Of a stretch of DNA of 64,000 nt, positions 30,879-54,118 are shown piece after piece. This stretch comes from Escherichia phage vB_EcoM_EP57. Positions within the stretch are counted from its first letter, which is position 1. Each line of letters starts with the position of its first letter. The position numbers and the translations under genes are program-made. The notes under the pieces are model-generated. The model had not been told where the DNA came from and made no database searches. It saw only the letters and a list, made by a program, of their open reading frames with translations. Where the stretch lies: the sequence record OR544956; one strand, given 5' to 3'.

Positions 30879-30879
30879 A

Positions 30880-36913: not shown

Positions 36914-36935
36914 GGGGCTTCGGCCCCTTTTTATT
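36914..36935 (+). terminator. stem-loop GGGGCTTCGGCCCC plus T-run
   Basis: GGGGC-TTCG-GCCCC then TTTTTATT. Confidence 0.5.
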
Positions 36936-36949
36936 GAGGAGAATTTTAA

Positions 36950-38035
36950 ATGGCAGCAATTAATTTACACAATGAAGTTTACAAAACAGGAAAATATCCA
37001 GTATTTTTGGGGGAGCAATTAGGGATCTTTGATTCTGTTAACGTAACTTATCCAGAAATGCACAAACTCTACAAACTTCAAAAAGCACAAGATTGGGATG
37101 AAAACGAAGTTAATCTGGATCAGACACGTAAAGATTTCGTAGCTTGTTCTAAAAACAACTATGATGTTATGATTAAAAACTTATCGTTCCAATGGGAAAA
37201 TGATTCTCTTGCAAAATCAATCATCACTTTGTTCTCTCCATTCTTGAGTAACAATGAAGCCTGTGCTATGATGATGAAGCAGAGTGAAATGGAAGTTCTC
37301 CATGCGTTAACGTATTCTGAAATAATCCGTCAATGTACTCCAGATCCAATTGAAGTCATCAATCAGATTATGATTAATGATAAAATTTTCAATCGTATGG
37401 GTATCATTGCTGATATCATGGGTCAGTTGGAAGAAGCTGGTCATAAGTATGCTCTAGGATTGATTGAAGCTAACGATGAACTTCGCTTGCTGATTCTTAA
37501 AGGGATGGTAGCCCTGATTGGATTAGAAGGTATTCAGTTTATATCTTCCTTCTCTGCTACTTTTGCTATGGCAGAACAACAATTGTTTGTTGGGGCTTGT
37601 AAACTGATCCAGAAAATTATGCTAGATGAAATCTTGCATGTTAAGATGGACTATGCTGTAATTGATGCATTGATGCATGACCCAATTTGGCGTAAAATTT
37701 ACGAAGATAATATTGAAGAGTTGACTTTGATCCTCGACACTGTTGTTGAACAAGAGGAACAGTGGTGTGACTACCTGTTTAGTGAAGGTCGTTTTATTGT
37801 AGGTCTTAACGCCGAATTGTCTAAACAGTGGGTTTATTTCAATGCTGCTCCTATTTATCGTCGATTGAAAATGAAAGCCAAGTTTAAAGCACCTAAACAT
37901 AGTCCTTTAGCTTGGATGGAAAAATGGTTGAATCCTGATTTGATTCAGTCAGCAGCCCAAGAGATTCAGTTAACTAATTACAAATTGAATTCAGCTAACA
38001 AAGATCTCTCTGATGATGAGGAGCTTGACTTCTAA
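36950..38035 (+). CDS. nrdB: ribonucleoside-diphosphate reductase small subunit
   Basis: 361-aa ORF directly after nrdA, RBS and ATG; size typical of class I R2. Confidence 0.7.
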   Translation: MAAINLHNEVYKTGKYPVFLGEQLGIFDSVNVTYPEMHKLYKLQKAQDWDENEVNLDQTRKDFVACSKNNYDVMIKNLSFQWENDSLAKSIITLFSPFLSNNEACAMMMKQSEMEVLHALTYSEIIRQCTPDPIEVINQIMINDKIFNRMGIIADIMGQLEEAGHKYALGLIEANDELRLLILKGMVALIGLEGIQFISSFSATFAMAEQQLFVGACKLIQKIMLDEILHVKMDYAVIDALMHDPIWRKIYEDNIEELTLILDTVVEQEEQWCDYLFSEGRFIVGLNAELSKQWVYFNAAPIYRRLKMKAKFKAPKHSPLAWMEKWLNPDLIQSAAQEIQLTNYKLNSANKDLSDDEELDF

Positions 38036-38244
38036 TGATTTTGAGATGTGTTGGTATAATCGACACATTCAAAGACGTTTTTGACAAAGGGGCTTCTTAT
38101 GAAGCCTCCGAAATGAAGAATGGTTTTTGTGATGTATTCGGTAAACGCCCGAAGAAAAACGGCGATCCTTGGCTAGGAGTTATGTCTTGTGGTCATATTA
38201 TTGTAAATGGTGTTGCCAAGTTTGAAATAATTAAGGAGGAATAA
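38035..38244 (+). CDS. hypothetical small protein
   Basis: 69 aa, ATGA overlap with nrdB stop. Confidence 0.35.
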   Translation: MILRCVGIIDTFKDVFDKGASYEASEMKNGFCDVFGKRPKKNGDPWLGVMSCGHIIVNGVAKFEIIKEE

Positions 38245-38537
38245 TGGCTGAAAAACTTATTTTTTGTCCTGTGTGCGGTGGGACTGGACAGATGGAAGTG
38301 GAAATTATGGTAACATTTCCTTGCCTGAATTGTCATGGTGAAGGACGAGTAGTAATCTTTGAAAAAGAAGAGGTGGAAGATGGAGAAGAGTATGTCCGTA
38401 TTCCACGAGAATTAACAGATCACATTGCAGAAGCAATAGCTTTCGAAGCTAGATGTTGTGGAGGCATTGCTTACGATATTTATGAAGCAATTATTAAAGC
38501 TGCTCAAGAAGAGGAGGAGATGAAAAATGGGTATTGA
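38244..38537 (+). CDS. hypothetical zinc-ribbon protein
   Basis: CPVCGGTG...CLNCHGEG; acidic C-terminus. Confidence 0.4.
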   Translation: MAEKLIFCPVCGGTGQMEVEIMVTFPCLNCHGEGRVVIFEKEEVEDGEEYVRIPRELTDHIAEAIAFEARCCGGIAYDIYEAIIKAAQEEEEMKNGY

Positions 38538-38853
38538 TATCGAATGGCGTATGTTACAGGGTGCACCTTTTAATAAGTGGGAAGAGGCTGTAGGAGAAGA
38601 TCCTAGAATTGAAGAAGAATTTGACGGAGATTTTAACTGGTTCTTACAAGAAGGTCTGGACTTAAGCCGCATCTCTCCTTTCTACGATGCGGATGAGTCT
38701 TATTGCATATATGGCCTTGATTTAGAAGGCGGAGAGGGAAGCATAGCTGTAGATCTTGAGCAATTGAATGAGAATGCAAAAGAAGCCTATGCAAAGCTAC
38801 TTGAAAAATATAACATTAAAACGGAAACTATTATTTCTCAACATGTTTGGTAA
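38527..38853 (+). CDS. hypothetical acidic protein
   Basis: 108-aa ORF, coupled to neighbours. Confidence 0.35.
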   Translation: MGIDIEWRMLQGAPFNKWEEAVGEDPRIEEEFDGDFNWFLQEGLDLSRISPFYDADESYCIYGLDLEGGEGSIAVDLEQLNENAKEAYAKLLEKYNIKTETIISQHVW

Positions 38854-38862
38854 GGAGAACTG

Positions 38863-39855
38863 ATGCGCTATCTGGTAACAGGTGGTCTTGGTTTTATTGG
38901 GAGTGCCGTGGTGCGCTCTCTTTGTCAAGATCCTAATAACGAAGTTTTTGTCGTTGATAAGATGGGCTATGCAGCAGATATTGAGAATGTAGGCGATATC
39001 ACTCACGTTAAACTAAGCATAACAGATTTGGCAAACGAAACCCAGGTCAAAAGTTTAGTAGTAGAGTGCAATCCTGACTTCATCATTCACTTAGCGGCAG
39101 AAAGTCATGTGGATAATTCTATCAAGAATCCACGAGTTTTCATCGACTCCAATATTATCGGTACATACAATTTATTGGAAGCTGCAAGGCTCCTCCCAAA
39201 AAATAAACTGAAGATGTTCGTACACGTCTCCACAGACGAAGTGTACGGCGATATGGCAGACTCTGGCGTTCCCTTTACCGAAAAGACAGCTTATGCCCCT
39301 TCAAGCCCGTACAGTGCGTCTAAGGCAGCATCTGACCATCTTGTGAAAGCTTGGCACCGCACCTACGATTTGCCTGTTGTGATAACCAACTGCTCCAATA
39401 ACTTTGGGCCTTATCAACATCCAGAAAAGCTGATCCCAAAAATCATCACAAGTATCTTGACGAATAAAGAGATTCCGGTGTATGGTAAAGGCGACCAGGT
39501 GCGAGACTGGCTTTTTGTTGAGGATCATGCGCGAGCTATTCTTCAAGTGGCAACAGGTGGAGAACCAGGTCAAACGTATAATGTTGGAACACGTAATCCC
39601 AAAACCAATATGGAGATCATCTATATGGTTTGTGACTATATGGATACTGTACATCCAGAAGCAGTAACCTACCCTTCTTCCAACTTGATAACTTTTGTTG
39701 AAGATCGTAAAGGACATGACTTGCGTTATGAAATCAATCCTTCTAAGATAGAGTCTGAACTGGGCTGGAGTGCAAACTCTACATTTGAACAAGATCTCTA
39801 CTCAACGATTGAATGGTACTTAAACAACCCTCAATGGTGGAGTGAGAAAATTTAA
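38863..39855 (+). CDS. rmlB: dTDP-glucose 4,6-dehydratase
   Basis: [17 protein letters not shown] Rossmann motif; catalytic [15 protein letters not shown] (YxxxK); 330 aa. Confidence 0.9.
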
Positions 39856-39863
39856 GGAGGGTT

Positions 39864-40742
39864 ATGAAAGGTATTATTTTGGCGGGAGGAAGTGGAACCC
39901 GCCTTCATCCGGTAACACGCAGTGTGAGCAAGCAATTGCTCCCTGTGTATGACAAACCCATGATCTACTACCCTTTATCGGTATTGATGTTGGCTGACAT
40001 TAAGGATATTTTAATCATCACCACACCAGGTGATCAGGAAGACTTTGAGTATCTTCTCGGAGATGGGTCTATGTTTGGGATAAAACTCACTTACGCAATC
40101 CAATCCGAGCCACGAGGTCTTGCGGAAGCTTTCATCATAGGTAAAGATTTTATCGGAGAAGACTCTGTTGCTCTTATTTTAGGTGACAACCTATTCTTCG
40201 GACAAAGCTTTGGTAAACTACTGATTAACGCTAGTGAGATGGTAGATGTTTGGGGTGGAGCTTGTATCTTCGGGTATTTGGTGAAAGATCCTGAACGATT
40301 CGGTGTGGTTGAATTTGGGAGTAATCGTCAAGCTATTTCTATTGAAGAGAAACCTGAAAATCCTAAATCAGATTATGCTGTCACAGGTTTGTATTTCTAT
40401 GATAACTCTGTTATTCAACGTGCATTAGAAGTAACCCCTTCCGCGCGTGGAGAACTGGAGATCACTGATATCAATCGCAGCTACCTAGAAGACAGCAAGT
40501 TACAAGTGGAAGTTCTCGGACGAGGATTTACTTGGCTTGACACAGGAACACACGCCAGTCTGATGGAAGCTGGTCAATTCGTGCAGACTATTGAGAACCG
40601 TCAAGGATTGAAGATTGCGTGCCTGGAAGAAATTGCTTTCAAAAAAGGGTGGATTTCTTTAGAGACTTTGGTGTATCATGGAAACTCACTGAAGAAAACA
40701 GAGTACGGGCAATACCTACTCAAATTAGCGGAGAGAAAATGA
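39864..40742 (+). CDS. rmlA: glucose-1-phosphate thymidylyltransferase
   Basis: [39 protein letters not shown] signature; 292 aa. Confidence 0.9.
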
Positions 40743-41305
40743 AAGTAGAAAAAACAAAAATTGAAGGTGCGGTAATTATCAAACCAGACGTTTATAAAGA
40801 TGATCGTGGTTTCTTTCTAGAAACATATAATGAACAAAAATACGAAGATATTATTGGTAGACAAACTTTCGTTCAAGATAACATGTCTAAATCAAACTTC
40901 GGTGTTTTGCGAGGAATGCACTTTCAAACAAATAACCCGCAAGGTAAGCTTGTTCGTTGTGTAAGTGGGGAAGTATTGGATTTCGCTGTAGATTTACGTA
41001 AAGATAGTCCAACTTACGGTGCTTGGGACGGTGTTGTTCTTCGTGCACGACACCATACGCAGTTTTGGCTTCCACCTGGTTTGGCACATGGTTTTATAGT
41101 TTTGAGTATGGATGCGATCTTTGAATACAAATGCACAACTCCATACGACCCTTCTAGTGAACAAAGTTTACGTTGGGATGATCCTGATATAGGGATCGAT
41201 TGGGGCTTCGATATGATTTTTGACGAAGGTTTTAAACCTATTCTATCAACAAAAGATGCAATGGCTAAATCTTTTCAACAGTTACGTAGCGAGGGTGTAT
41301 GCTAA
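40739..41305 (+). CDS. rmlC: dTDP-4-dehydrorhamnose 3,5-epimerase
   Basis: ATG at 40739 overlaps rmlA stop (ATGA); cupin with RGMHFQ motif; 188 aa (track start 40619 is an upstream alternative start inside rmlA). Confidence 0.8.
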
Positions 41306-42141
41306 CATATCTGGTATTGGGCGGTAATGGACAACTGGGACAAGCTTTACGTAAAGTGGCTCCTTCAAATGTATCTTTAATTTATCCTAAAGAACGTGTA
41401 GATATTACAAATTTTGAAGCTGTGCGAAACGCTATTATTGAAGATTATGTAGATGGTGTTATTAATTGCGCCGCTTATACGGCTGTAGATAAAGCAGAAC
41501 ATGATTTTGCTACTGCTTTGGCTGTTAATGCGTATGGACCTGCAAATATTGCGGCAGTGTGCAGCAAACTTAAAATTGATTTTGTGCATATTTCTACAGA
41601 CTATATTTTTAATTATTCTCATCCTATTTTTGAAGATACTACACCTAACCCAATAAACAATTATGGGTATACGAAAGAACTTGGTGAAAAAATGGTGCGA
41701 GGAGTTAACCCAAATGCATATATTATTCGAACAGCCTCGGTATATAGCGAATTTGGAAATAACTTTCTAAAAACCATGTTGTCTCGCTATAATGATGGAC
41801 AACGTGATTTTATTATTGTTGCTGATCAGTTCTCTTGTCCAACATATGCTCCAGATTTAGCAGAAGCTATTTTTGAAGTATTAAAAACAGGTTGGTCAAG
41901 GTCTGTTAAGACTTACCATTTTGCAGGAAGCCATCTTATTTCTTGGGCGGAGTTTGCGGAAAAAATCTTGACACAGATGCCAGAACCTGTTAAGATATCG
42001 GCGGTATCAGCTTCAACCTATAATGCTCCAGCAGCACGTCCGGTGAAGTCACAACTAGTAACCAGTCACTATCTTACAAAATCAGATTTAAATAAAGGTA
42101 TTGAACAGTCTTTAGCAGTATTACTTAATAAGGAGAGGTAA
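41299..42141 (+). CDS. rmlD: dTDP-4-dehydrorhamnose reductase
   Basis: N-terminal LVLGGNGQLG; YGYTK (YxxxK); 280 aa; overlaps rmlC stop. Confidence 0.7.
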   Translation: MLTYLVLGGNGQLGQALRKVAPSNVSLIYPKERVDITNFEAVRNAIIEDYVDGVINCAAYTAVDKAEHDFATALAVNAYGPANIAAVCSKLKIDFVHISTDYIFNYSHPIFEDTTPNPINNYGYTKELGEKMVRGVNPNAYIIRTASVYSEFGNNFLKTMLSRYNDGQRDFIIVADQFSCPTYAPDLAEAIFEVLKTGWSRSVKTYHFAGSHLISWAEFAEKILTQMPEPVKISAVSASTYNAPAARPVKSQLVTSHYLTKSDLNKGIEQSLAVLLNKER

Positions 42142-42401
42142 TGGAATTTGTAATTTTTGGTAAACCTAACTGTCAATTTTGCGAAATGTCAAAACAACTA
42201 TTAACCATGCGCAATAAACAGTTTGAATATTTAAGTCTTGATCAAGACTATGATTTAGAATCAATGACTAAAACAGTTGTTGATCTTACCGGAGTTCCTC
42301 CACGCACATTTCCACAAATTCTGTCCGAAGTGAACGGGGAGGTAACATACGTAGGCGGTTTTACCGAACTGCGTGATCTCATGGCTCAAATTGCGGAGTA
42401 A
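42141..42401 (+). CDS. glutaredoxin / NrdH-like redoxin
   Basis: 86 aa with N-terminal CQFC (CxxC); TAATG coupling to rmlD. Confidence 0.6.
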   Translation: MEFVIFGKPNCQFCEMSKQLLTMRNKQFEYLSLDQDYDLESMTKTVVDLTGVPPRTFPQILSEVNGEVTYVGGFTELRDLMAQIAE

Positions 42402-42563
42402 CAATTATGAAAAGTAAACAGAAACGTAAGATCTTTTCTCGTGCTTTGGCAAATGAGCTGAAGTCCAACATAAAGAAAACGAAACCAAAACGTGAAACTT
42501 CTCCAGAACATCTGTTGTTTAACGAGTTGGATCACGGAGTAGGAGACGACGAATAGGAAGTAA

Positions 42564-43064
42564 ATGGCTAAAGTAGTAGATGAGTTTGATATGCTACGAG
42601 TCGATGAAGGACTGAAGCTTACTGTTTATCAAGACCATCTTGGTTATTGGACAGTCGGCATAGGACACCTTCTGACTAAAATAAAAGATAAAGCAAAGGC
42701 TATTCAAATCTTAGATAATCTTCTTGGTCGTAAGACTAATGGAGTTATCACAGAAAAAGAAGCCCGTCAAATCTTTGCTGATGATGTTGCAAAAGTGAAG
42801 AGAGACATAAAAAACAGTGCTATCTTATCACCAATCTATGATAAGGTTAGTGATACTCGTAAATTGGGAATAATCAACATGGTTTTCCAGTTGGGGTTAA
42901 AAGGTGCTGAAGGGTTTCAAAATAGCTTGACTTTAATCAGCAATGCATATTATACTCAAGCAGGTAAAAACATGCGTAAAAGCCGATGGTATAGCCAGAC
43001 GCCAAACCGTGCTGAACGAGTAATTAAAGTTCTGACTTCTGGAACTTTAGATGCTTACAACTAA
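42564..43064 (+). CDS. T4-type lysozyme (endolysin)
   Basis: MLRVDEGLKL...YQDHLGYWTVGIGHLLTK with catalytic Glu/Asp/Thr; SRWYSQTPNRAERVI matches T4 gene e lysozyme as recalled. Confidence 0.85.
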   Translation: MAKVVDEFDMLRVDEGLKLTVYQDHLGYWTVGIGHLLTKIKDKAKAIQILDNLLGRKTNGVITEKEARQIFADDVAKVKRDIKNSAILSPIYDKVSDTRKLGIINMVFQLGLKGAEGFQNSLTLISNAYYTQAGKNMRKSRWYSQTPNRAERVIKVLTSGTLDAYN

Positions 43065-43860
43065 TAAAGGGGCTTCGGCCCCTTCTAAAAGGAGTGCTAC
43101 TATGGGAAATAAAACCGCAGCTAAAACACAACGGCAGAAACTGGCTAATTCAGCAAAGATTGAAAGCCGTTATGCAGCAAAAGCGGTAGGTAATGACGAT
43201 TACCGTTTAGATGAATTTATGCCTGAAGGGGACCAAAATAAGATTGTTCAAAGCATGATTTGGAATGATCTGACTGTTGTAAATGCTCCGGCAGGGACTG
43301 GTAAAACCTCTGTTGCTTTATGGAAAGCTTTGCAGATGCTTCGTTCAGGAGACTTCCGTAAACTACTTTTTATCAAGAACCCTACTGAAGTCGGAGATGA
43401 CCAGATTGGTTTCTTGTCTGGAGATAAAACAGATAAACTAGCAGCACACTATGAATCTACAAAACGTATTTTCCAGCAATTCATGACAGCCAACAAATTG
43501 GAAAACGACATTGGATCAGGTAAGATCGAATTGAATATTCCTAACTATTTGTTGGGGGCCACCCTGGATAATACAATCGTCATTATTGACGAAGCACAAC
43601 TTATGTCAACAGAAACACTTAAACTTCTTATTGAACGTGCAGGTATTAATACGCATGTTATTGTATTAGGCGATGTTCGCCAGACATATGCAATTAAAAA
43701 ACGTAGCAATGGTCTGCATCAAATTTTGGAACTTTTATATCCAGAAAATGAAGAAGGTGTTCGTGAGCCAATTGTAGATTTTATTGGATACGTTGAACTG
43801 ACAACGGACGATAATAAACGTGGACGTTTGTCTAAACTGATTACTGAAGTGTTTATTTAA
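43051..43860 (+). CDS. phoH: PhoH-like ATPase
   Basis: Walker A NAPAGTGKTS; IIDEAQ Walker B; 269 aa. Confidence 0.75.
   Translation: MLTTNKGASAPSKRSATMGNKTAAKTQRQKLANSAKIESRYAAKAVGNDDYRLDEFMPEGDQNKIVQSMIWNDLTVVNAPAGTGKTSVALWKALQMLRSGDFRKLLFIKNPTEVGDDQIGFLSGDKTDKLAAHYESTKRIFQQFMTANKLENDIGSGKIELNIPNYLLGATLDNTIVIIDEAQLMSTETLKLLIERAGINTHVIVLGDVRQTYAIKKRSNGLHQILELLYPENEEGVREPIVDFIGYVELTTDDNKRGRLSKLITEVFI
43068..43082 (+). terminator. GGGGCTTCGGCCCC stem-loop without a clear T-run
   Basis: same hairpin as at 36914 and 54099, followed only by TT. Confidence 0.25.
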
Positions 43861-43895
43861 TAACATGGCAGGGAAGCCATTTATAAGGAGGATTG

Positions 43896-44396
43896 ATGGG
43901 TGTAGCAACAATAGCTATCGGAAGAAGCGGTATAGATGAGTGCTATCAAACGGGACTCGTAAAACCTAACGAATTTCGTCAAATTTGTGTAAACCATATT
44001 GAAAAAGAGATTGCTCTTACTTTAGAGAATATGACCCTCCGAGATAAACTGGAAATGTTTAAATGTTGGTGTCTAGGAGAAGATTGGCTTTTAAACCATT
44101 TTCAAGAACTTTCTGATAGTAAAGAAAGCTTGTTTGATTGTATAATAGGAATAGCTGGCTCCGATCCTAGCCTTCTGCACATAACAGAAGAAGAGGCGAA
44201 GTTACTGTTCTTAAGTAATTTGTTTAATAAGAAAGCACTGCTTGTTCGTGATTGCAGTGATCTTCTTAATAACCCGCTCGCAACGTCTGATCAAATTTTT
44301 GTTGACAAAGAGACACTACGTGCGATAGAATACATCTGCAAATATGTGAATGGTGGGAAAGCGGTTCTTAAAACATTAACAGAGGAGGAAGAATAG
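43896..44396 (+). CDS. hypothetical protein
   Basis: ATG at 43896 after AGGAGG. Confidence 0.4.
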   Translation: MGVATIAIGRSGIDECYQTGLVKPNEFRQICVNHIEKEIALTLENMTLRDKLEMFKCWCLGEDWLLNHFQELSDSKESLFDCIIGIAGSDPSLLHITEEEAKLLFLSNLFNKKALLVRDCSDLLNNPLATSDQIFVDKETLRAIEYICKYVNGGKAVLKTLTEEEE

Positions 44397-44998: not shown

Positions 44999-45066
44999 CT
45001 TCTAAATCTGAAAATATTAATCTCGTAAATGTGGCGGATTTCGAAGGAACCGCTATTTAACAAACT

Positions 45067-45087
45067 GCCCCTTCGGGGGCATTTCTT
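45067..45087 (+). terminator. stem-loop GCCCC-TTCG-GGGGC with weak T-tract
   Basis: hairpin followed by ATTTCTT. Confidence 0.3.
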
Positions 45088-46033: not shown

Positions 46034-46045
46034 GGAGTGTGAACT

Positions 46046-46282
46046 ATGGGTAAACTAATTATGACAGTGGCTATTGATTTTGATGAAGTAGATGAAAGCC
46101 TCAACCTTTCACTTTCTACTGACGTAGATGGCGAAATGGATAATATTGAAGCAGCTACTGCTCTTTTCTTCAAAAAAGCCATTGAAGTTTATGCCGAACA
46201 TGCTGCAAATCAGGCAGTAGATTACGGTGGTATCGTGCGAGCTTTAGTTCACTCTACCGAGGGCAATGACTGGGAAGATTAA
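46046..46282 (+). CDS. hypothetical acidic protein
   Basis: 78-aa ORF with RBS. Confidence 0.35.
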   Translation: MGKLIMTVAIDFDEVDESLNLSLSTDVDGEMDNIEAATALFFKKAIEVYAEHAANQAVDYGGIVRALVHSTEGNDWED

Positions 46283-46485
46283 TGGCTTACAATTATTACT
46301 GCATTTATGCACATGAAAAGAAAAAAGGTGACACTGGGACTAACGTTTATGCGGAGTCCGAATCTCATGCAAAAGAGATTGGTGCTATCCTTTTATCACG
46401 CTGGACTGGAAATAATTACAGTGCAGAAGATATGTTTGCAGAAGTGGATTCTAGTATCCAAGAAGACAACATAACAACTACGTGA
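46282..46485 (+). CDS. hypothetical protein
   Basis: 67-aa ORF, ATGA overlap. Confidence 0.3.
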   Translation: MAYNYYCIYAHEKKKGDTGTNVYAESESHAKEIGAILLSRWTGNNYSAEDMFAEVDSSIQEDNITTT

Positions 46486-46963
46486 TATACTTATACTCCC
46501 TTTTCGGAGGGAGTATTTTTAAGGAGGGATTATGCAGAGCGGAGAAGAACTTTTAGAGAAACAATTCTCAACGCGTTAAGTTATATAGTTTTTCTAAGCA
46601 ATCTTGATGTGAATGAGATACTTTTACGGCGCGAAGGTAATTTCTGGAGCGTTAAATATCATGCAACAAGGTCTGTAATCTACCTGGAAGAGGCGGAATT
46701 CTCTTTGGTAGAATGATCCGAGGAGTAGTTATGCGTTCAACTTTCACTGGCAAAATAAATGCTGGTTTGATTTTTACAGCAGTAAGCATTCTTAGCAAAA
46801 AGTTTAAAGTTGTTAACTTACCTGTGTGTGTCGATTTCGATCATGTTTTTGATCCTTCGAACCCCACTCGTTGCATAGTAAGGAGCAATGTTGAAAACCC
46901 AACAGAAAATCTTTTTATGTAACAAAACCATCTCAAAGCATACTTAACCAGGTTGAGGCGAAA

Positions 46964-47302
46964 TTGATACCTAACGGTAAATATTACTCCTTTTTACCTT
47001 GTAAGTCGGTTGAAGTAGAGAATAGCAATACTTTCGCTAATAACTTGTCTGTATTCGTTTTCTTTGTTTCACAGGAAGACGAAACAGATGAAATGGTAGC
47101 AACAGTGAGATCACTTTATGACTCTTTAGGGGTTGTTTATAGTCAACAAGTGTGCGAAAATAATAAAGCCTGTGTAGATTTCATTATCAACGGTATTTGT
47201 GTTTGTAGAGTAGAATCTTTTTGGCTGCACGATACATATGTGACTGTAGCAGAGGTTATATCTGAACCAAGATTTAGTCATGCAGTTTCGTTAATAATTT
47301 GA
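46964..47302 (+). CDS. hypothetical protein
   Basis: 112-aa ORF. Confidence 0.3.
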   Translation: MIPNGKYYSFLPCKSVEVENSNTFANNLSVFVFFVSQEDETDEMVATVRSLYDSLGVVYSQQVCENNKACVDFIINGICVCRVESFWLHDTYVTVAEVISEPRFSHAVSLII

Positions 47303-47312
47303 GGAGGAAGGA

Positions 47313-47642
47313 ATGGAAATTACTACAGAACAAGCCCTTATCGATGAGGGTCGTAAAATCTTAGAAAAGTATTTAGGGGAGATTCATAAAACCCCTGGCT
47401 ATTTGGGTTGGAGAATTGTTGAAGCTGTAGATTTCCTTCCTCGTAACAGTAAAAACGTCGAAATGCGATCTCTTTTCTTATTAGTAAAGGTGGATGGGGA
47501 TACGCCTTTTAAAGATGCCGCAGAACATATTGAAAAAGTTGAAGAGAAAGCTTATGCAGAATTTGCCGATCTTGTTTTAGAACAAGAGATTGAAGGAAAG
47601 GTGAATATTTTTATTTTCTTAGATTTTGAGGAGGATAAGTGA
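47313..47642 (+). CDS. hypothetical protein
   Basis: 109-aa ORF with GGAGG RBS. Confidence 0.4.
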   Translation: MEITTEQALIDEGRKILEKYLGEIHKTPGYLGWRIVEAVDFLPRNSKNVEMRSLFLLVKVDGDTPFKDAAEHIEKVEEKAYAEFADLVLEQEIEGKVNIFIFLDFEEDK

Positions 47643-48382
47643 TCATACACAGAGAAATTACTGTTAAAAGCGATCAAGATCTTTTTATAATTGGAGATCT
47701 ACACGGTTGTTATAATTTGTATGAAAAAGGAAAGGCAAAGTTAGGTATCCGAGATACAGATGTGGTTGTATCTCTAGGAGATCTTACTGACCGTGGAAAG
47801 CAAAACTTTCGTTGTGTTTTAGAATTTACTCGTAAACACAATCGCTACGCTATTCGTGGCAATCATGAAGACATGATGATTAAAGGTATGCTGGAAGGAG
47901 ATCGTAGCTACTACGAGTGTTGGTATCAAAATGGAGGATATACGGTCTTTGAAGAATGTGGTGAAGAAGGAGCTACAGCCTTAGCAATGATGACAGAAGA
48001 TTTACCTGTTGTTCTCATTGTTAACTACAGAGGCATGAAACTTGCGTTTATTCATGGTGGGTACCCATCTTCTTTGGAATATCTCCCTGTAACAGATATT
48101 CCAGAATACATTTCGAAGATGACGAAAACACAGGAAAACCGTTTTGCTGAAGCACTTGTGTGGGACAGAGATATGGTAGACTGTGCTAAAGAGGGAATGA
48201 AACTTCCTGTTGTGATGGGTGTGGATTATGTGTTTCATGGACACTCTTATGTAAAAACACCTATTATCAATGCGAATCGTGTTTATATGGATACTGGATC
48301 TGTGTTCAATAATAACTTAACATTTGCTTATTTCGATATGGACGGTGGTCTTCAATTTTATTCAACTCTTGAGGAGGATTAA
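47639..48382 (+). CDS. Ser/Thr protein phosphatase (metallophosphoesterase)
   Basis: GDLHGC, GDLTDRG and RGNHE motifs in order. Confidence 0.8.
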   Translation: MIIHREITVKSDQDLFIIGDLHGCYNLYEKGKAKLGIRDTDVVVSLGDLTDRGKQNFRCVLEFTRKHNRYAIRGNHEDMMIKGMLEGDRSYYECWYQNGGYTVFEECGEEGATALAMMTEDLPVVLIVNYRGMKLAFIHGGYPSSLEYLPVTDIPEYISKMTKTQENRFAEALVWDRDMVDCAKEGMKLPVVMGVDYVFHGHSYVKTPIINANRVYMDTGSVFNNNLTFAYFDMDGGLQFYSTLEED

Positions 48383-48690
48383 TGTATAAGATTACAATTA
48401 TTCAAAGTGTAGGTAATATCCGTAAAGAAGTTATCTTAGAAACAGAAGATGTTAATCTTGTTCGTGAGATTGTTCTTAAGGAAGATAACCTGCAAGCTGT
48501 AGAATCAGATGCACCGAATCTTATGGTGGATCAAGAATATTCTGAACTTCGTCGTATTTTTGAAGAGATTCAGAAGAAAGAAACACAACCTACCATAAAA
48601 CCTTTTGGTCCTTATGATCCGAGCAATCCTAGCAGTCCTTGGATCATGAGAAATACGGAACCCTATACACCTTTTGAAATTACTTGTTGA
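48382..48690 (+). CDS. hypothetical protein
   Basis: 102-aa ORF, coupled. Confidence 0.35.
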   Translation: MYKITIIQSVGNIRKEVILETEDVNLVREIVLKEDNLQAVESDAPNLMVDQEYSELRRIFEEIQKKETQPTIKPFGPYDPSNPSSPWIMRNTEPYTPFEITC

Positions 48691-48697
48691 GGTGATT

Positions 48698-49279
48698 ATG
48701 GCAGAACTGTTCTATACGGGAGTTGGAAGTAGGGACATATCTGAAGAAGAGTGGGCTTTGATGGTAGGCATAGGGAAATGGCTTTCAAACCTTGGGTTTA
48801 AATTACGGTCTGGGAAGGCAGAGGGTAGTGATTCTGCTTTTGAAACAGGTGTCCAAGAGTCTGAAAATCCTACTAACAAGGAGATTTATGTTCCTTGGGA
48901 AAATTTCAAAGGTAATCAGATTCCAGGTGATGTTATTGTTCTTGCAAAACCAGATACAATGAACTATGCTATCTCTGTGCAATGGATTAAAGATGTTCAC
49001 CCAGCTTATGAAAAGCTTAAGCAGGGTGCTAGAAAATTGCACCAACGTAATGTGCATCAAGTGTTAGGCAGAGATTTGGAGAATCCTGCTCCATCATGTT
49101 TCTTATTGGCTTGTGCTAATACTGATAAACATGGGGATGCAAAAGGTGGAACAGCTACGGCTTGGAAGATAGCTAAAGCCAATAATGTTCCTTGTTTAAA
49201 CATTCGTGGGAAAACAAAACAAGAGATTTACGATTTTCTACGACCTTTGGTAATGAGGGCGATAACAAGTGATTCCTAG
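48698..49279 (+). CDS. DprA/Smf-like Rossmann-fold (SLOG) protein
   Basis: YTGVGSRDIS...LRSGKAEGSDSA matches the DprA GSR...SG.A.G.D pattern; ATG at 48698 with RBS. Confidence 0.45.
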   Translation: MAELFYTGVGSRDISEEEWALMVGIGKWLSNLGFKLRSGKAEGSDSAFETGVQESENPTNKEIYVPWENFKGNQIPGDVIVLAKPDTMNYAISVQWIKDVHPAYEKLKQGARKLHQRNVHQVLGRDLENPAPSCFLLACANTDKHGDAKGGTATAWKIAKANNVPCLNIRGKTKQEIYDFLRPLVMRAITSDS

Positions 49280-49781
49280 ACGTAAACGTGGTGAACAAAG
49301 AACAAACTTGGCAGAAATCTTAGATTACAACATGGTTAATGATGTGACAAAAGAAATTCTGCCTGTTGTAGAAGATATTCTTCGTAGAGGGTTACGATTC
49401 TGCTCGGATCGGGTGCATTTCATGTGGACACATAAAAGTGACTCCGCTTTGAATTTCTATCCTTTGGACTATACTCTGAACAATACAGAGATGAAAGATA
49501 TCAACAAATATTTAATGGGATATAAAGATATAACCGAAACTGTTCTTGGAGAATTGGCAGAAATCTTGGCTAACGATATCCTTAGAAATATTAATAAGGC
49601 TCTTGACAGAAGCCCAGCAGGAGTAGTAGTATCTTTTGCTGTGCCAGATATGGTTAAATATGAGTCTACAATACCTAATAAAGCTTATGCCTTTCTTCGG
49701 AGAGACGTTCGTGGAAATGTGTTGGAGATGGAGTCAAACTACAAGATTGAGGAGGTTTTATGGCAGAGTTCGGATCAGTAA
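49269..49781 (+). CDS. hypothetical protein
   Basis: 170-aa ORF. Confidence 0.35.
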   Translation: MIPRRKRGEQRTNLAEILDYNMVNDVTKEILPVVEDILRRGLRFCSDRVHFMWTHKSDSALNFYPLDYTLNNTEMKDINKYLMGYKDITETVLGELAEILANDILRNINKALDRSPAGVVVSFAVPDMVKYESTIPNKAYAFLRRDVRGNVLEMESNYKIEEVLWQSSDQ

Positions 49782-50050
49782 CAAGTTTTGAAAGTAACTT
49801 CGTTACCGCTTGGGAAGCTTGGGATGAAATGGGTGTTGGGGAACTTTATTTTTACAATGTAACACTACGCCCAGAGTATGTTTACCTGGTACCAGAAGGA
49901 ACAGTTCAAATTGGCATGTATTTGTCTTCTCAAGACGGTGTTGTTCAATTTGAGTTTTATTCAAACACAACGGACAACGAATTTACATACCGCGCATTTC
50001 ATGTCAACATGTCTTTAGGAGAGGAGAAATTTTATGACGACCAAGTTTAA
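49760..50050 (+). CDS. hypothetical protein
   Basis: 96-aa ORF with RBS. Confidence 0.35.
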   Translation: MAEFGSVTSFESNFVTAWEAWDEMGVGELYFYNVTLRPEYVYLVPEGTVQIGMYLSSQDGVVQFEFYSNTTDNEFTYRAFHVNMSLGEEKFYDDQV

Positions 50051-50231
50051 AACAGTAGAAGAAGCCGTAAAAGCAGCTTATGAGGCTTTAGCGGAAGCAG
50101 AGCAGTTAGCAGACGAGACTGGTGAAGGTTTCAGCTTCTCCCCTGAATATGGGATGGGTGGTTATTATGATCCAGAAGATGAAAATGAGAATACTGGAAC
50201 AAATTGGCATCCATCTTCTTTAAGTTGTTAA
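50034..50231 (+). CDS. small acidic protein, family member 1 (C-terminal W-x-SS-x-C motif)
   Basis: 65 aa ending NWHPSSLSC. Confidence 0.4.
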   Translation: MTTKFKTVEEAVKAAYEALAEAEQLADETGEGFSFSPEYGMGGYYDPEDENENTGTNWHPSSLSC

Positions 50232-50242
50232 TAGGAGGTAAA

Positions 50243-50512
50243 GTGGGAATCGAAGATATCAAAGGTTATAAACCGCATACCGATGACAAAATTGGTAAAG
50301 TGAATGCTATTAAAGATGCTGAAGTTCGATTAGGATTAATCTTTGATGCTCTAATGTCTGAATTGTGGGCTGAACTGGATGATTGTGAAGATTTGGAAGA
50401 GTCTACCAATATATCCACCCGCCTTGACCAAATTTCAATAGCAAAGACTAAGTTGAAAGAAGCTTCTATGTGGGCCTGTCGTTCCGTTTTCCAACCAGAG
50501 GAGAAATACTAA
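50243..50512 (+). CDS. hypothetical acidic protein
   Basis: GTG at 50243 after AGGAGG. Confidence 0.3.
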   Translation: MGIEDIKGYKPHTDDKIGKVNAIKDAEVRLGLIFDALMSELWAELDDCEDLEESTNISTRLDQISIAKTKLKEASMWACRSVFQPEEKY

Positions 50513-50730
50513 TGAGTTATCGTAATGTTGAAGAATTAACTGAAAAAGCCCAAGCTATTATGGCTTTGGTGGACGAACTTACAAAAGAAGCTGAAGATGC
50601 TGGTTTTGGTCTTAGTTTAGAAGATGACGCAATCTGTTTTGAAGATTGGCAATCCTCTTCTTGTTATGGTGAAGGTGATGATGGTTTCGTTGTTAATTCT
50701 CAAGGCGTTTGGCACAGTAGTAGCTGTTAA
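50512..50730 (+). CDS. small acidic protein, family member 2
   Basis: ATG at 50512 after GAGGAG; ends GVWHSSSC. Confidence 0.4.
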   Translation: MSYRNVEELTEKAQAIMALVDELTKEAEDAGFGLSLEDDAICFEDWQSSSCYGEGDDGFVVNSQGVWHSSSC

Positions 50731-50739
50731 GGAGAGATT

Positions 50740-51012
50740 GTGGAGTCTGAAGGCGAACTGCTGATAAAAAAGAAAGTTAAAGAGATGGAACAAGCACAAA
50801 GAAAGTTTCGTAAGGAAATTGAAGAACTTTGTGAACAGTTTCAGGAACAAGCTTGGATAGGTGACTACGGTAACGGAGAAACTTATTACCCTACAGGAAC
50901 GCCAGCCGCAGATCACTATATTGATTTCATTTGTGAAGATTATGGTGTAGAGTTGGATGAAAATGGTTTAACCACAAGAGGTGTTTGGATCTCTTCTTCC
51001 TCAATGTGTTAG
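50740..51012 (+). CDS. small acidic protein, family member 3
   Basis: 90 aa ending GVWISSSSMC; RBS AGGAG. Confidence 0.4.
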   Translation: MESEGELLIKKKVKEMEQAQRKFRKEIEELCEQFQEQAWIGDYGNGETYYPTGTPAADHYIDFICEDYGVELDENGLTTRGVWISSSSMC

Positions 51013-51022
51013 TAAATAATAA

Positions 51023-51044
51023 CCCGCTTCGGCGGGTTTTTTAT
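51023..51044 (+). terminator. rho-independent terminator
   Basis: CCCGC-TTCG-GCGGG followed by TTTTTTAT. Confidence 0.6.
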
Positions 51045-51072
51045 TGACAGGAATCTGGAAGCTTGATAAACT
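51044..51072 (+). promoter_or_regulatory. sigma70-like promoter
   Basis: TTGACA - 17 nt - TAAACT. Confidence 0.35.
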
Positions 51073-51102
51073 TAACCTATCAACCAATAGAGGAGAAATA
51101 TT

Positions 51103-52044
51103 ATGGTGTTAATTGGTAGCCGTGCATTGCAAATTCATGCTATGGACATGGGAAAAGACTTGTATCGCCCTTGTGTAGATTTAGATTACCTGTGTACAGA
51201 ACAAGAGTGGGAAGAATTATCAAAAATGTTCTCTCAAGACGAGTTTGTTGAACTTGTAGAACGTAAAGGAAACAAAGGCCATGTCAAAATGATAGCTGGT
51301 GCACATTTGGAATACGATATTGCTTCTCAAGGAGATAGCACAGAAGCTTTGATTAGCTATTGTGAAGATTCTGATGATGTTCGTCGAACTTACGCTGGAC
51401 ATGTTGTTGCTCCTTTAGATGTGCTCTACCTTCTTAAAATGAGTCATCGTTTTAAAAAGGATAGTCCTCACTTCTTTAAAACTATGAAAGATATTCATTT
51501 CATGCGGTCACTGGGCGCAAAGATCCCAGAAAATCTTAAGAGTATTTATGAGTTGCGTGAGAAAGAAACATACACTTACTCTCATCCGAACTTAAACGTA
51601 AAAAGTAAAGAGTTCTTTAAAGGTGACGAGGTTCCGTATGTTTATGATCATGATTCTATCCATGAAGCAATCGCGTTAATGGATGCTCCAGCATATAAAT
51701 CTTATATGAAAGATGGAAGTGAAGTTATGACCAGCAAAGAAAAGTTTTTTGCTCAACCAAAACATGTGCGGCTGTTAGGTGTTTATGAAGAAGCGTGTGT
51801 TTTGGCTTTGGAACGTTCACAAATTCCTTTCGGTGAAGAGATCGGAGGTCCAACCCCTAAGCAAAGTTTTATAATGGCTTTATCTAAAGTCTGCACATCC
51901 ATCACTAGTGGTTGGTTTAGGGAATATGCTTGGGAAAACTTTTATGTTGTTACTAAGCTATATGAAAACATGGGCGAAAACGACTATGTTGAACGTTTTA
52001 AAGCTAATCAACATGTAGTTAAGCCTTTTGAAGGAGGTTATTAA
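51103..52044 (+). CDS. hypothetical protein with weak nucleotidyltransferase-like GS...DxD pattern
   Basis: 313 aa; N-terminal LIGSRALQIH...CVDLDYL; spacing longer than canonical minimal NTases. Confidence 0.3.
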   Translation: MVLIGSRALQIHAMDMGKDLYRPCVDLDYLCTEQEWEELSKMFSQDEFVELVERKGNKGHVKMIAGAHLEYDIASQGDSTEALISYCEDSDDVRRTYAGHVVAPLDVLYLLKMSHRFKKDSPHFFKTMKDIHFMRSLGAKIPENLKSIYELREKETYTYSHPNLNVKSKEFFKGDEVPYVYDHDSIHEAIALMDAPAYKSYMKDGSEVMTSKEKFFAQPKHVRLLGVYEEACVLALERSQIPFGEEIGGPTPKQSFIMALSKVCTSITSGWFREYAWENFYVVTKLYENMGENDYVERFKANQHVVKPFEGGY

Positions 52045-52045
52045 T

Positions 52046-52441
52046 ATGTGTGGATATCTTTCAGAAAGTTATTTCAAAGTGACCCAGGAGGATTTAGAAA
52101 AAGCACGATTGAAACTGACAGCTATTATTGAATACTCTAATACTGTTGATCACAGATTAAAGACTACTAAAGTATCTGTTCCTTGTTGGTTAGGTTTACG
52201 GCATAAAACAATGTCTCAGCATGACCATGTTGTTCGAGAGATGCATGGTTGGTGTTGGTTTCACGATGTGGCTCTGCATTTTGGTTATATTACAGAAGAA
52301 GAGCATAGATTCTGTGAACTAACATATCGTATTCCAACCCTTTACGATTTAGATTTGTGGAAGAAAGCAAACGAGATTTTTCTTACAGAAAGTGATTGGC
52401 GTAAAGTTATGGCTTGTCTTGAATGGAGGGGTAATGAGTAA
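52046..52441 (+). CDS. hypothetical protein
   Basis: ATG at 52046 after GGAGG. Confidence 0.35.
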   Translation: MCGYLSESYFKVTQEDLEKARLKLTAIIEYSNTVDHRLKTTKVSVPCWLGLRHKTMSQHDHVVREMHGWCWFHDVALHFGYITEEEHRFCELTYRIPTLYDLDLWKKANEIFLTESDWRKVMACLEWRGNE

Positions 52442-53117
52442 AACAGTTTTGTCTATGTTTGACGGATCTGGGATCATGGTGTTACGTTATGCCGAAGCAG
52501 GTCACAAGTGTTTTTGTGTAAACGCTGATGAAGGGGATCACGGTAAATACGAGGTTAGGATGGAGCACCCAAACATAACCTATGTGAATGCTTGGATAGA
52601 TTCTACATTCAACCCTGAAGATCATGGGATACCTAAACCCGATATTATTTTTGGATTTCCACCTTGCACTATGTTAGCAGGTAGTGGTAGCAAACATGAA
52701 CGTAGCACAGAGGAATTAGATGAAGCTTTAGCTAATATTCGTGTAGTGGAAGCTTTGGGTAACAAATATAATGTTCCTTGGATGATTGAGAACCCAGTAG
52801 GTAAACTTTCAACCTTATGGCGTAAACCCGATTTTTACTTTGATCCTTATGAGTATGGTGGGTATTTGTTTGAAGAGGAAGGAAGCTTTCATCCTAAAAT
52901 GCCTACCCGTGATGGGTATACAAAGAAAACTTGTATTTGGCACGGCAATGGTTTTGTTCAACCAGTGAAGAAACCAGTAGATCATATAGGCTGCTTTTGG
53001 GGTTGGAAAAGCTTAGGTGGAGCTAGTGCAAAAACAAAACAACTTAGATCCCTAACCGCACGTGGTTTTGCTCGTGCCGTGTTTTTGTCTAACAATCTTC
53101 TAGATAAGGAGAAATAA
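52434..53117 (+). CDS. C5-cytosine methyltransferase-like protein (short, no obvious target-recognition domain)
   Basis: motif I FDGSG, motif IV GFPPCT (PCQ-like catalytic Cys), motif VI ENP; 227 aa from ATG 52434. Confidence 0.5.
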   Translation: MSKTVLSMFDGSGIMVLRYAEAGHKCFCVNADEGDHGKYEVRMEHPNITYVNAWIDSTFNPEDHGIPKPDIIFGFPPCTMLAGSGSKHERSTEELDEALANIRVVEALGNKYNVPWMIENPVGKLSTLWRKPDFYFDPYEYGGYLFEEEGSFHPKMPTRDGYTKKTCIWHGNGFVQPVKKPVDHIGCFWGWKSLGGASAKTKQLRSLTARGFARAVFLSNNLLDKEK

Positions 53118-53770
53118 TGTCAAATTCAAAACCAGTAGTTGCTTATCAAGTAGATCGTAATGATGGTGAAGGAAGTGTTGTTATTTTCAGTACACACGGT
53201 CTTGAGGCTCGTCGAAAAGGTGCATATCGTTTAGAATGTGAGTTTGAAGACTGCACAAGCCACCGTGTCAAACAATTCGATCAATATGCTGATAAAGGCT
53301 TCGTCCCTGTCAAAGCCTTACTGGAAGATGGTTGGTGGGTATATTCTGCTTTTGATTACTCAAGACTGGAGGAGTCAGCTTCGTGCGCCTCCGAGATCGA
53401 ATATGATGATTACTATGACACTCTGTACCTTCCAGAATGGCTTGTCTTTTCTCCTGATGAAAAAAGTGTCTGGAAAACGTGGGAAGAAATGGAGAGACAT
53501 GCGTATAGCATCAATGAAGCTTTAGATCGTAAAGCTTGGTTTATTGAGGCAGTAAAGGCGGCATACCCCCAATTCTCATTCTGTGATTTCACTGGTGGCC
53601 CAGGATACATTACACATACAGCCTCTTTTGAGTTTCCTGGTTCACGTTATAAGGGTAATGTTTATTGGGACTGGGATGAAAATAAACAACCTTCGGCTCA
53701 AGACTTCCGTTGCTATGTTTGTCAAGGTGATCAAGAAGCCCTTGACAAATACCTTGAAAGTCTGGTATAG
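53117..53770 (+). CDS. hypothetical protein
   Basis: 217-aa ORF, start overlaps upstream stop. Confidence 0.35.
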   Translation: MSNSKPVVAYQVDRNDGEGSVVIFSTHGLEARRKGAYRLECEFEDCTSHRVKQFDQYADKGFVPVKALLEDGWWVYSAFDYSRLEESASCASEIEYDDYYDTLYLPEWLVFSPDEKSVWKTWEEMERHAYSINEALDRKAWFIEAVKAAYPQFSFCDFTGGPGYITHTASFEFPGSRYKGNVYWDWDENKQPSAQDFRCYVCQGDQEALDKYLESLV

Positions 53771-53829
53771 TGCCGATATCTGAACAAAGCCTCCTGTTTC
53801 AGGGGGCTTTTCTTTTATAGGAGGGAATA

Positions 53830-54081
53830 TGTTTCAATGCACATTGGTTGGTGAGCAAACTAAAAGAAAAAGAGAAACCATTTCCTACTCTGCTTGATCG
53901 TTCTCTTGTGGAAGATGCAGGTAAAGCATATGCAGACTATGCGTATGCAGACGGGAAATATTTGGAAGATGATAAGGCTAACCATTTGCTTTATGTTTAC
54001 TATGAAGCTGAATCTGCCTACGATAATTATTACAGCATGTCTAACATCCTACGTCTGTTTGCAGAGTTTGATATTTATTAA
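53830..54081 (+). CDS. hypothetical protein, apparently frameshifted in an A-rich run (ATG 53830 frame closes after 22 codons; 77-aa frame from 53848)
   Basis: strong RBS and ATG at 53830; downstream frame lacks RBS and starts TTG; homopolymer-rich aaactaaaagaaaaagagaaacc at junction. Confidence 0.3.
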   Translation, partial: CFNAHWLVSKLKEKEKPFPTLLDRSLVEDAGKAYADYAYADGKYLEDDKANHLLYVYYEAESAYDNYYSMSNILRLFAEFDIY

Positions 54082-54098
54082 ACAAATAAACCACTCAA

Positions 54099-54118
54099 GG
54101 GGCTTCGGCCCCTTTCTT
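54099..54118 (+). terminator. GGGGCTTCGGCCCC hairpin plus T-tract
   Basis: GGGGC-TTCG-GCCCC then TTTCTTATT. Confidence 0.45.

Follow-up and report, generated by a model that had tools for sequence, protein, structure and literature searches.

In the 64,000 nucleotides of Escherichia phage vB_EcoM_EP57 (OR544956) that were analysed here (the window in what follows), one 14-nt hairpin, GGGGC-UUCG-GCCCC, occurs in three identical copies. With a probability of roughly 0.7, these copies are intercistronic hairpins of the rho-independent-terminator type, with a short G+C stem and a hyperstable C(UUCG)G tetraloop, acting as partial terminators and as 3'-end stabilisers. They are probably ordinary hairpins of a long-known kind, namely leaky terminators or mRNA-stabilising elements, and not a new signal. 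Indeed, it was in phage T4 mRNA that the CUUCGG hairpin was first found and its extraordinary stability recognised (PMC4371310). For E. coli terminators, it is established that termination can be leaky, that the U-tract is important, that a tetraloop is of advantage and that 3' hairpins protect mRNA (PMC9257418).

Three identical hairpins at gene junctions

The window belongs to a Phapecoctavirus (phAPEC8-like E. coli phage) and shares 99.5% identity with Escherichia phage tuntematon. A literature search found no transcriptome or transcript 3'-end data for Phapecoctavirus. An exact search for GGGGCTTCGGCCCC returned three copies in the window, all on the plus strand (36914-36927, 43069-43082 and 54099-54112). 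The first-pass annotation had listed three identical UUCG hairpins of 14 nt, which is borne out, with the second copy placed one nucleotide too early (43068). The genome-wide count that it proposed was run on tuntematon and gave exactly the same three copies and no further ones in the 150,000 of 150,473 bases scanned. A chance origin of the copies was rejected (0 matches in 100 dinucleotide-preserving shuffles), as was a larger duplicated element: the ungapped flanks are 25-50% identical and have in common only the T-tract and the Shine-Dalgarno sequence. In the RNA sense strand, the UUCG loop is closed by a C-G pair. The 14-mer alone folds at -9.6 kcal/mol with an ensemble frequency of 0.97, and each of the three 71-nt contexts contains the hairpin in its minimum-free-energy fold. 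These contexts, however, have no significant extra stability over shuffles (z = -0.7 to -1.8), which, like the shortness of the stems (5-7 bp), counts against the terminator reading. A covariance-model search of the whole window against Rfam, at the gathering threshold, returned 11 tRNAs only, and the hairpins match no family.

Copy 1 (36914..36927, plus strand; extended by one A-U pair to 36913-36928) lies between nrdA (stop codon ending at 36905) and nrdB (ATG at 36950), 8 nt past the nrdA stop codon. Its stem runs into the U-tract TTTTTATT (36928..36935, plus strand), which the nrdB Shine-Dalgarno sequence GAGGAG directly adjoins. This tract has a T-tail score of 4.29 and exceeds the 99th percentile (3.31; 95th percentile 2.51) for 15-mers taken at random from the window; the score follows a d'Aubenton-Carafa-type formula and is a relative measure only, not a termination efficiency. 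Copy 2, with two further pairs (AAGGGGC-UUCG-GCCCCUU; 43067..43084, plus strand; exact search and fold), lies between the lysozyme gene (stop codon ending at 43064) and phoH (ATG at 43102), 4 nt past the lysozyme stop codon, and its tail CTAAAAGGAG holds no U-tract (T-tail 2.15, below the 95th percentile). Copy 3 (AAGGGGC-UUCG-GCCCCUU; 54097..54114, plus strand; exact search and fold) lies, in relatives, 9 nt past the stop codon of a Sir2 gene; Sir2 is missing in the window, where a truncated ORF ends at 54081. It is followed by the U-tract TTTCTTATT (54113..54121, plus strand; T-tail 3.55, above the 99th percentile), by the Shine-Dalgarno sequence AGGAG and by the ATG of a small ORF at 54133. 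The gene context given earlier, with copy 1 after nrdA and copy 2 between lysozyme and phoH, is correct, and so is the description of a T-run at sites 1 and 3 that is absent at site 2 (4.29 and 3.55 vs 2.15).

In the direction of transcription, 4-9 nt separate the stop codon from the hairpin and 19-22 nt separate the hairpin from the next start codon (22 nt at site 1, 19 nt at site 2, 20 nt at site 3). The Shine-Dalgarno sequence of the next gene begins 5-8 nt past the stem at all three sites, so that a separate promoter does not fit ahead of the next ATG; the downstream genes therefore need read-through, and any termination must be partial. In MK373788, a genome 98-99% identical from which the ARNold annotations for sites 1 and 3 were taken, the identical sequence at site 1 is annotated as 'putative transcriptional terminator, ARNOLD, -13.90' and the identical sequence at site 3 as an ARNold terminator (-13.90); unlike at these two sites, no terminator is annotated at site 2. 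The earlier proposal of a termination signal with site-dependent efficiency fits, as a prediction, with hairpins that are sense-oriented and placed past stop codons, with two strong U-tracts and with the ARNold calls at sites 1 and 3.

Termination, the read-through fractions and an effect on mRNA stability at these hairpins are deduced here from sequence, and the proposed mechanism is the following. Just past the stop codon of the preceding gene, the nascent mRNA would fold into the hairpin. The U-rich tract at sites 1 and 3 would let a fraction of the host RNA polymerases terminate, and the remaining polymerases would pass these sites and express the next gene. At site 2, the main role of the hairpin would be to hold up 3' exonucleases or to serve as a structural insulator. 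The combined effect of these elements may be that neighbouring cistrons differ in mRNA level.

It is possible, though rather unlikely, that all three hairpins are non-terminating, with transcription continuous and the hairpins blocking 3'-to-5' exonucleases after endonucleolytic cleavage, as stabilisers or processing barriers comparable to REP elements or the malE-malF intercistronic hairpin. The downstream genes without a promoter of their own, the lack of a U-tract at site 2, where the weak tail is kept in three lineages, and the established protection of mRNA by 3' hairpins (PMC9257418) would agree with this, but U-tracts above the 99th percentile directly abut the stems at sites 1 and 3, which ARNold predicts as terminators. 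The two roles are not exclusive, since termination would leave the same protective hairpin at the 3' end of the transcript. At site 2, weak termination is expected for want of a significant U-tract, and this hairpin is most likely mainly a stabiliser rather than a terminator. Site 2 could also be read from the other strand, as a terminator for antisense transcription starting within phoH: its minus-strand tail TTTATTAGTT has a T-tail of 3.46, above the 99th percentile, and at 43609-43582 the minus strand has an 11-of-12 sigma-70-like match. However, such promoter-like matches are barely enriched (83 vs 61.3 +/- 7.9 in shuffles), the A-rich run upstream of the hairpin is partly the stop codon itself, and the site 2 loops of three clades (UUCG, GCAA and GAAA) are special only in the sense strand, which makes antisense termination highly improbable.

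Conserved stem and interchanging loops

The orthologous junctions in relatives were found via their flanking genes and not by a search for the hairpin. The GGGGC/GCCCC stem is kept at the same junctions in three other Stephanstirmvirinae lineages, with a hairpin at all of them and small stem variations in outra, phi92 (site 1) and AMO3598/PD114. The loops differ among relatives: UUCG, UUCA, UUUCGG and GAAA at site 1; UUCG, GCAA, GAAA and GUCAU at site 2; UUCG, UACG and GAAA at site 3. Read in the sense strand, and in that strand alone, most loops at the orthologous sites fall into the UNCG or GNRA tetraloop class; off-class variants are few (UUCA, GUCAU, CUUUGU). Loops are also mixed on the same stem within single genomes, namely UUCG, UUCG, GCAA and UACG in phiWec179, and UUCG, GAAA and GUCAU in Tr1. 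A stem that is kept while its loop changes indicates that RNA stability is conserved, and not a sequence signal. Concerted evolution of the copies was considered because both site 2 and site 3 carry GAAA in Justusliebigvirus, in place of the UUCG of the window; it was rejected on a site-by-lineage matrix, given the mixed loops of phiWec179 and Tr1.

The same 14-mer was found in at least 120 IMG/VR viral contigs, with 33-68% G+C. Among the IMG/VR copies listed, at least five T occur in the next 8 nt in 55 of 125, against 21 of 125 with at least five A on the upstream side; in several cases, a stop codon also lies close upstream and a GGAG downstream. The view that exact reuse points to a shared signal is therefore not upheld, the flanks being unrelated, the loops interchanging on a kept stem and the 14-mer being present in at least 120 diverse contigs.

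The stems hardly vary at the three sites, and differences on both arms are seen only at other terminator sites: between lineages, stems in the same block differ on both arms after the genes for the pyrophosphohydrolase, the DNA-polymerase exonuclease subunit and HslV. In all, four Stephanstirmvirinae lineages have the GGGGC/GCCCC stem in essentially the same form at up to four junctions. Such a near-invariant stem, beside other terminator stems that differ between lineages, would be expected if the 14-mer were a sequence-specific signal for a factor of phage or host origin (for instance an RNase, antiterminator or RNA-binding protein) that joined the three junctions in one regulon. This is nevertheless hardly probable: UUCG, UACG, GAAA, GCAA and GUCAU occupy the same junctions and are mixed within phiWec179, the 14-mer recurs widely among viral contigs of diverse kinds, the CUUCGG loop has no known binding protein (PMC4371310), and no Rfam family is matched. 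It is likewise very unlikely that the GGGGC/GCCCC set consists of dedicated attenuators that a factor encoded by the phage recognises (for example an antiterminator or RNA-binding protein specific for the stem), or that it is kept uniform by short-patch gene conversion; if true, a dedicated attenuator set would coordinate nrdB, phoH and other genes during infection. That the loops are not homogenised within genomes argues against gene conversion. Stability is the sole reason proposed for the fixation of the GGGGC stem at up to four junctions, which counts against the main reading. The identity of the copies is accounted for by the tiny sequence space open to the most stable 5-bp hairpin together with the age of the hairpin.

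Other C(UUCG)G hairpins and the insertion site at nrdA-nrdB

The window has 7 C(UUCG)G hairpins and the tuntematon genome has 10, all of them intergenic. Every one of the 7 in the window is in sense orientation, as are the 10/10 perfect-stem hairpins in tuntematon; in the latter genome, 0/10 read CGAA in the sense strand and all 10 lie in spacers just past stop codons. In brief, the further hairpins of the window include: a related hairpin, TGCCCC-UUCG-GGGGCA (45066..45081, plus strand), after the gene for an HslV-like peptidase; a second reused hairpin, AACCCGC-UUCG-GCGGGUU (51021..51038, plus strand), followed by TTTTTT and by a TTGACA-17-TAAACT promoter-like site; an exact copy of the latter (54696..54713, minus strand) with the tail TTTTTCAT, annotated as a terminator in MK373788 and lying in a block of minus-strand genes, hence also in sense orientation; and a hairpin with one G-U pair, ACCUCGC-UUCG-GCGGGGU (6180..6197, minus strand), located after the tape-measure gene and followed by TTTTTT (T-tail 4.71) and by a promoter-like site. 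The orthologues of the 45066 hairpin are AACCCCC-GCAA-GGGGGTT in phi92 and AAGCCC-TTCG-GGGCTT in Tr1, and thus both stem arms differ at this site. The 51021 hairpin carries an ARNold terminator annotation in phAPEC8 and Schickermooser and is conserved in phi92; with its promoter-like site, it is a predicted terminator-promoter cassette. In the phAPEC8 region examined, the annotated terminators are this type of hairpin and the convergent terminator only, and no terminator features are annotated in the 50 kb examined of the phi92 record. A TTGACA-type promoter-like site lies 3' of each of the hairpins at 51021, 30855 and 6180. At sites 1-3, the stem is followed by a Shine-Dalgarno sequence and not by a promoter, so that they do not have the form of a terminator-promoter (PeSL) cassette.

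The spacer at site 1 has received insertions in several relatives, either of a small ORF 3' of the hairpin (phAPEC8, phiWec179, outra and Tr1) or of an HNH endonuclease gene 5' of it (nieznany and phi92). An insertion hot spot of this kind, and the pairing of other hairpins with promoters as cassettes, would suit an origin of the copies at the DNA level, as the remnant of a mobile cassette, a hot spot of recombination or gene conversion, or a DNA-binding site. Such an origin is scarcely credible, however, as the flanks are without homology beyond the T-tract and the Shine-Dalgarno sequence, and as the strict sense orientation and the tetraloop classes, which are specific to RNA, indicate that selection acts on the RNA.

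Known counterparts and biological meaning

The three copies resemble the intrinsic terminators of E. coli and its phages in their G+C tetraloop stem, the 3' U-tract (sites 1 and 3), the A-rich 5' flank, the sense-oriented position just past a stop codon and the ARNold predictions for sites 1 and 3 in a near-identical genome. They differ from typical ones in that the stems are at the short end (5-7 bp), termination has to be partial and site 2 is without a U-tract. C(UUCG)G hairpins were reportedly described in the intercistronic mRNA of phage T4 by Tuerk et al. in 1988 (PNAS). The loop, its closing pair and the location between phage cistrons are the same here, and the interchange with GNRA loops is the same as that known from rRNA; unlike the T4 case, the phages are Stephanstirmvirinae and not T4-like, and one full 14-mer is used three times.

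REP elements, as in malE-malF, are intercistronic mRNA-stabilising hairpins. Site 2 is similar to such stabilisers, being a stable hairpin without a U-tract between co-transcribed genes, and the mRNA segment upstream of it could become more abundant as a result; this hairpin is, however, much smaller than REP elements and is not a dispersed host repeat family, and the stabilising role is putative. Promoter-early stem-loop (PeSL) cassettes are said to have been described in T4-type phages by Arbiol et al. in 2010. Repeated short stem-loops at the gene boundaries of a large lytic phage are common to both cases, and the 51021, 30855 and 6180 hairpins have a promoter-like site as well, whereas the three copies precede a Shine-Dalgarno sequence and modular change is seen only as insertions at site 1.

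In summary, the hairpins appear to be standard punctuation of phage operons, with small importance beyond annotation. Site 2 merits annotation as a conserved intercistronic hairpin, and the set of junctions illustrates neatly, on a small scale, how UNCG and GNRA loops interchange on a fixed mRNA stem. For the engineering of therapeutic phAPEC8-like phages, the nrdA-nrdB spacer is a tolerated insertion site, and the junctions nrdA|nrdB, lysozyme|phoH and Sir2|next ORF are predicted to be natural attenuator junctions.

Exact copies of the hairpin in the window and in its closest relative

The 14-mer GGGGCTTCGGCCCC, which forms a 5-bp GGGGC/GCCCC stem with a UUCG loop, is present in exactly three copies in the window, starting at 36914, 43069 and 54099, all on the plus strand, and was absent from all 100 dinucleotide-preserving shuffles (0/100). 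All three copies reported in the first-pass annotation were recovered, but its second coordinate was off by one and is corrected here to 43069. Copy 1 (36914) lies between the nrdA stop codon, 8 nt upstream, and the nrdB ATG, 22 nt downstream (tail TTTTTATT, then GAGGAG); copy 2 (43069) lies between the lysozyme stop codon, 4 nt upstream, and the phoH ATG, 19 nt downstream (tail TTCTAAAAGGAG); copy 3 (54099) is followed 20 nt downstream by the ATG of a small ORF (tail TTTCTTATTAGGAG). The idea that the three copies are a DNA-level repeat is contradicted by their unrelated flanks and strictly sense orientation.

The window belongs to the genus Phapecoctavirus (phAPEC8-like myovirus, subfamily Stephanstirmvirinae), and gene names were taken from the annotation of tuntematon, its closest complete relative (99.5% identity over 36000-44000). 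A genome-wide count, as proposed in the first-pass annotation, was run on 150,000 of the 150,473 bases of tuntematon and yielded three copies of the 14-mer, one at each of the junctions seen in the window and none elsewhere. Among perfect hairpins, a scan counted seven of the C(UUCG)G type in the window; tuntematon has ten, whose stems are 6-8 bp long. In tuntematon, all ten carry UUCG when read in the direction of the neighbouring genes (CGAA, 0/10) and, according to their coordinates and the annotation, are located in intergenic spacers a few nt past a stop codon (10/10); UUCG is also the commonest tetraloop among the G+C-rich hairpins of this genome (10/41). Furthermore, a second hairpin, AACCCGC-UUCG-GCGGGTT, occurs three times (window 51021, plus strand; window 54696, minus strand; tuntematon 20753, minus strand), and, outside the window, the DNA polymerase gene is followed by AAGGGGC-UUCU-GCCCCTT, a fourth near-copy of the 14-mer hairpin. 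This genome thus habitually reuses a small number of minimal hairpins.

Conservation of the junction hairpins in other lineages

The orthologous junctions were located through their flanking genes, independently of any hairpin search. A hairpin is present at the junction in every lineage examined, with a stem built on GGGGC/GCCCC, small stem variations in outra, phi92 (site 1) and AMO3598/PD114, and differing loops. At site 1 (nrdA-nrdB), the loop is UUCG in phiWec179 and nieznany, UUCA in phAPEC8 and GAAA in Citrobacter phage Tr1, with the variants GGGG-UUUCGG-CCCC in phi92 and GGGGG-CUUUGU-CCCCC in outra. At site 2 (lysozyme-phoH), it is GCAA in phiWec179/181, GAAA in Justusliebigvirus (JohannJBalmer, PD06, phi92) and GUCAU in Tr1; at site 3 (Sir2-small ORF), it is UUCG in MirsaeidiM and phAPEC8, UACG in phiWec179 and GAAA in Justusliebigvirus. 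At a fourth junction, downstream of the DNA-polymerase exonuclease subunit, phiWec179 and Tr1 have AAAGGGGC-UUCG and phi92 has AAAGGGGC-GAAA; the hairpin of the window at this place is another one, AGGGAGC-UUAUU-GCUCCCU. In the same block, the terminators after the pyrophosphohydrolase gene and after HslV differ between lineages in both stem arms.

Classically, two tetraloop classes count as extra-stable, UNCG and GNRA, and the CUUCGG hairpin was first discovered in phage T4 mRNA (PMC4371310). The majority of the junction loops belong to one of these classes, and they are special in the sense-strand reading only. Because the loops vary, mostly within these sense-only stable classes, the conserved element is a stable RNA hairpin and not one 14-nt word. 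The mixing of loops within one genome in phiWec179 (UUCG, UUCG, GCAA, UACG) argues against gene conversion as the keeper of the identity of the three window copies.

An exact-match scan of IMG/VR recovered the 14-mer in at least 120 contigs. Among the matches listed, the G+C content of the contigs ranged from 33% to 68%, at least five T were found in the next 8 nt in 55/125 copies and at least five A in the 8 nt upstream in 21/125, and several copies were closely preceded by a stop codon and closely followed by GGAG. The 14-mer is a generic solution and apparently a convergent one. Both the change of loops at orthologous junctions and the repeated finding of the 14-mer across diverse phages contradict a role as a sequence-specific signal; on the same grounds, its exact reuse, which suggested a shared signal in the first-pass annotation, has no special meaning.

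Other hairpin cassettes and absent segments

Terminator-promoter cassettes, in which a hairpin and its T6 tract lead directly into a TTGACA -35 and a -10 element, are present at 51021-51072, 30855-30908 and 6197-6137 (minus strand), with promoter-like parts at 51044-51072, 30880-30908 (11/12 matches) and 6166-6137, respectively; the 51021 cassette is kept in phi92, TTGACA included. In tuntematon, the early-gene spacers on the minus strand at 7,000-17,400, which lie outside the window, contain 12 repeated cassettes in the order TTGACA-17-TAnAAT promoter, hairpin about 7 nt past the -10, Shine-Dalgarno sequence and ATG. Their hairpins (GCGGCA-AUGG-UGCCGC, eight times; GCGGGAA-UAG/UGU-UUCCCGC, four times) look like 5'-terminal mRNA stem-loops, so hairpins would be reused here in another way. 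At 54370-54393, where plus- and minus-strand gene blocks meet head-on, lies a perfect 10-bp palindromic hairpin, AAAGGCACCC-AAGT-GGGTGCCTTT, flanked by A and T tracts; this bidirectional terminator is annotated as one in phAPEC8 and in Schickermooser, a near-identical relative. Eleven tRNA genes (Rfam RF00005) are clustered at 21557-23515 (minus strand), as annotated in relatives.

Compared with tuntematon, 11 segments of 39-4044 bp each are absent from the window (junctions at 6604/6605, 11406, 22926, 25185, 25252, 25721/25722, 26122, 31004/31005, 53837/53838, 54078/54079 and 54254/54255). Among them are the larger part of the DNA ligase gene together with about 4 kb on its upstream side, the Sir2 gene (about 871 bp, with its end about 20 nt upstream of hairpin 3) and 151 bp where two head and neck genes meet. 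No microhomology was found at the 11 junctions, and none of the deposited relatives spans the two tested junctions contiguously (0/64 and 0/70); real deletions, assembly artefacts and editing of the window are candidate causes. The nrdA-nrdB spacer (36905-36950) is a hot spot for insertions: between the hairpin and nrdB, phAPEC8, phiWec179, outra and Tr1 have a gene of about 110-135 codons, an HNH endonuclease gene lies between the nrdA stop and the hairpin in nieznany and phi92, and the window and tuntematon have neither insert.

Proposed termination and readthrough at the three sites

The bare 14-mer has a folding energy of -9.6 kcal/mol, and the hairpin is present in the minimum-free-energy fold of all three 71-nt contexts, which as wholes show no unusual degree of structure (ViennaRNA). 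On a T-tail score of the d'Aubenton-Carafa type, serving as a relative measure only, sites 1 and 3 scored 4.29 and 3.55, above the 99th percentile (3.31) of random 15-mers of the window, and site 2 scored 2.15, below the 95th percentile (2.51). In a consensus scan, sites 1 and 3 came out as terminator-like on the plus strand; site 2 was listed only on the minus strand. The suggestion of the first-pass annotation, a termination signal possibly with site-dependent efficiency, is reasonable in view of the strong U-tracts of sites 1 and 3 and the lack of a significant one at site 2. Schickermooser (MK373788), 98-99% identical in the region, carries the same sequences; sites 1 and 3 are labelled there 'putative transcriptional terminator, determined by ARNOLD, -13.90' and site 2 has no terminator annotation, so that two of the three copies are already in public annotation.

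An unlikely alternative for site 2 is a role as an antisense terminator: its minus-strand T-tail score is 3.46, and an 11-of-12 sigma-70 match (TTGACA-16-AATAAT, 43609-43582, minus strand), antisense within phoH, points toward hairpin 2. This match may be due to chance, and the sense-specific loop classes speak against such a role.

At all three sites, the gap between hairpin and start codon is only 19-22 nt, Shine-Dalgarno sequence included; this leaves nrdB, phoH and the small ORF no room for a promoter of their own 3' of the hairpin, and their transcripts must cross it. The roles proposed below for the three sites are consistent with established properties of E. coli terminators: leakage is common, the U residues at the start of the tract have the largest influence, tetraloops tend to make a terminator stronger, and mRNA is protected by hairpins at its 3' end (PMC9257418). 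No transcriptome study of Phapecoctavirus was found in a literature search. A purely mRNA-stabilising role of all three hairpins fits site 2 but leaves the pronounced U-tracts of sites 1 and 3 out of account.

In summary, the hairpin is an ordinary feature of an essentially known kind, and its effects on termination and stability at the three sites are inferred. Partial (leaky) intrinsic termination is the best-supported reading of the sequence at sites 1 and 3, where the remaining transcription would read into the next gene, and site 2 would be a weak terminator or a non-terminator whose main effect may be 3'-end protection or structure insulation.
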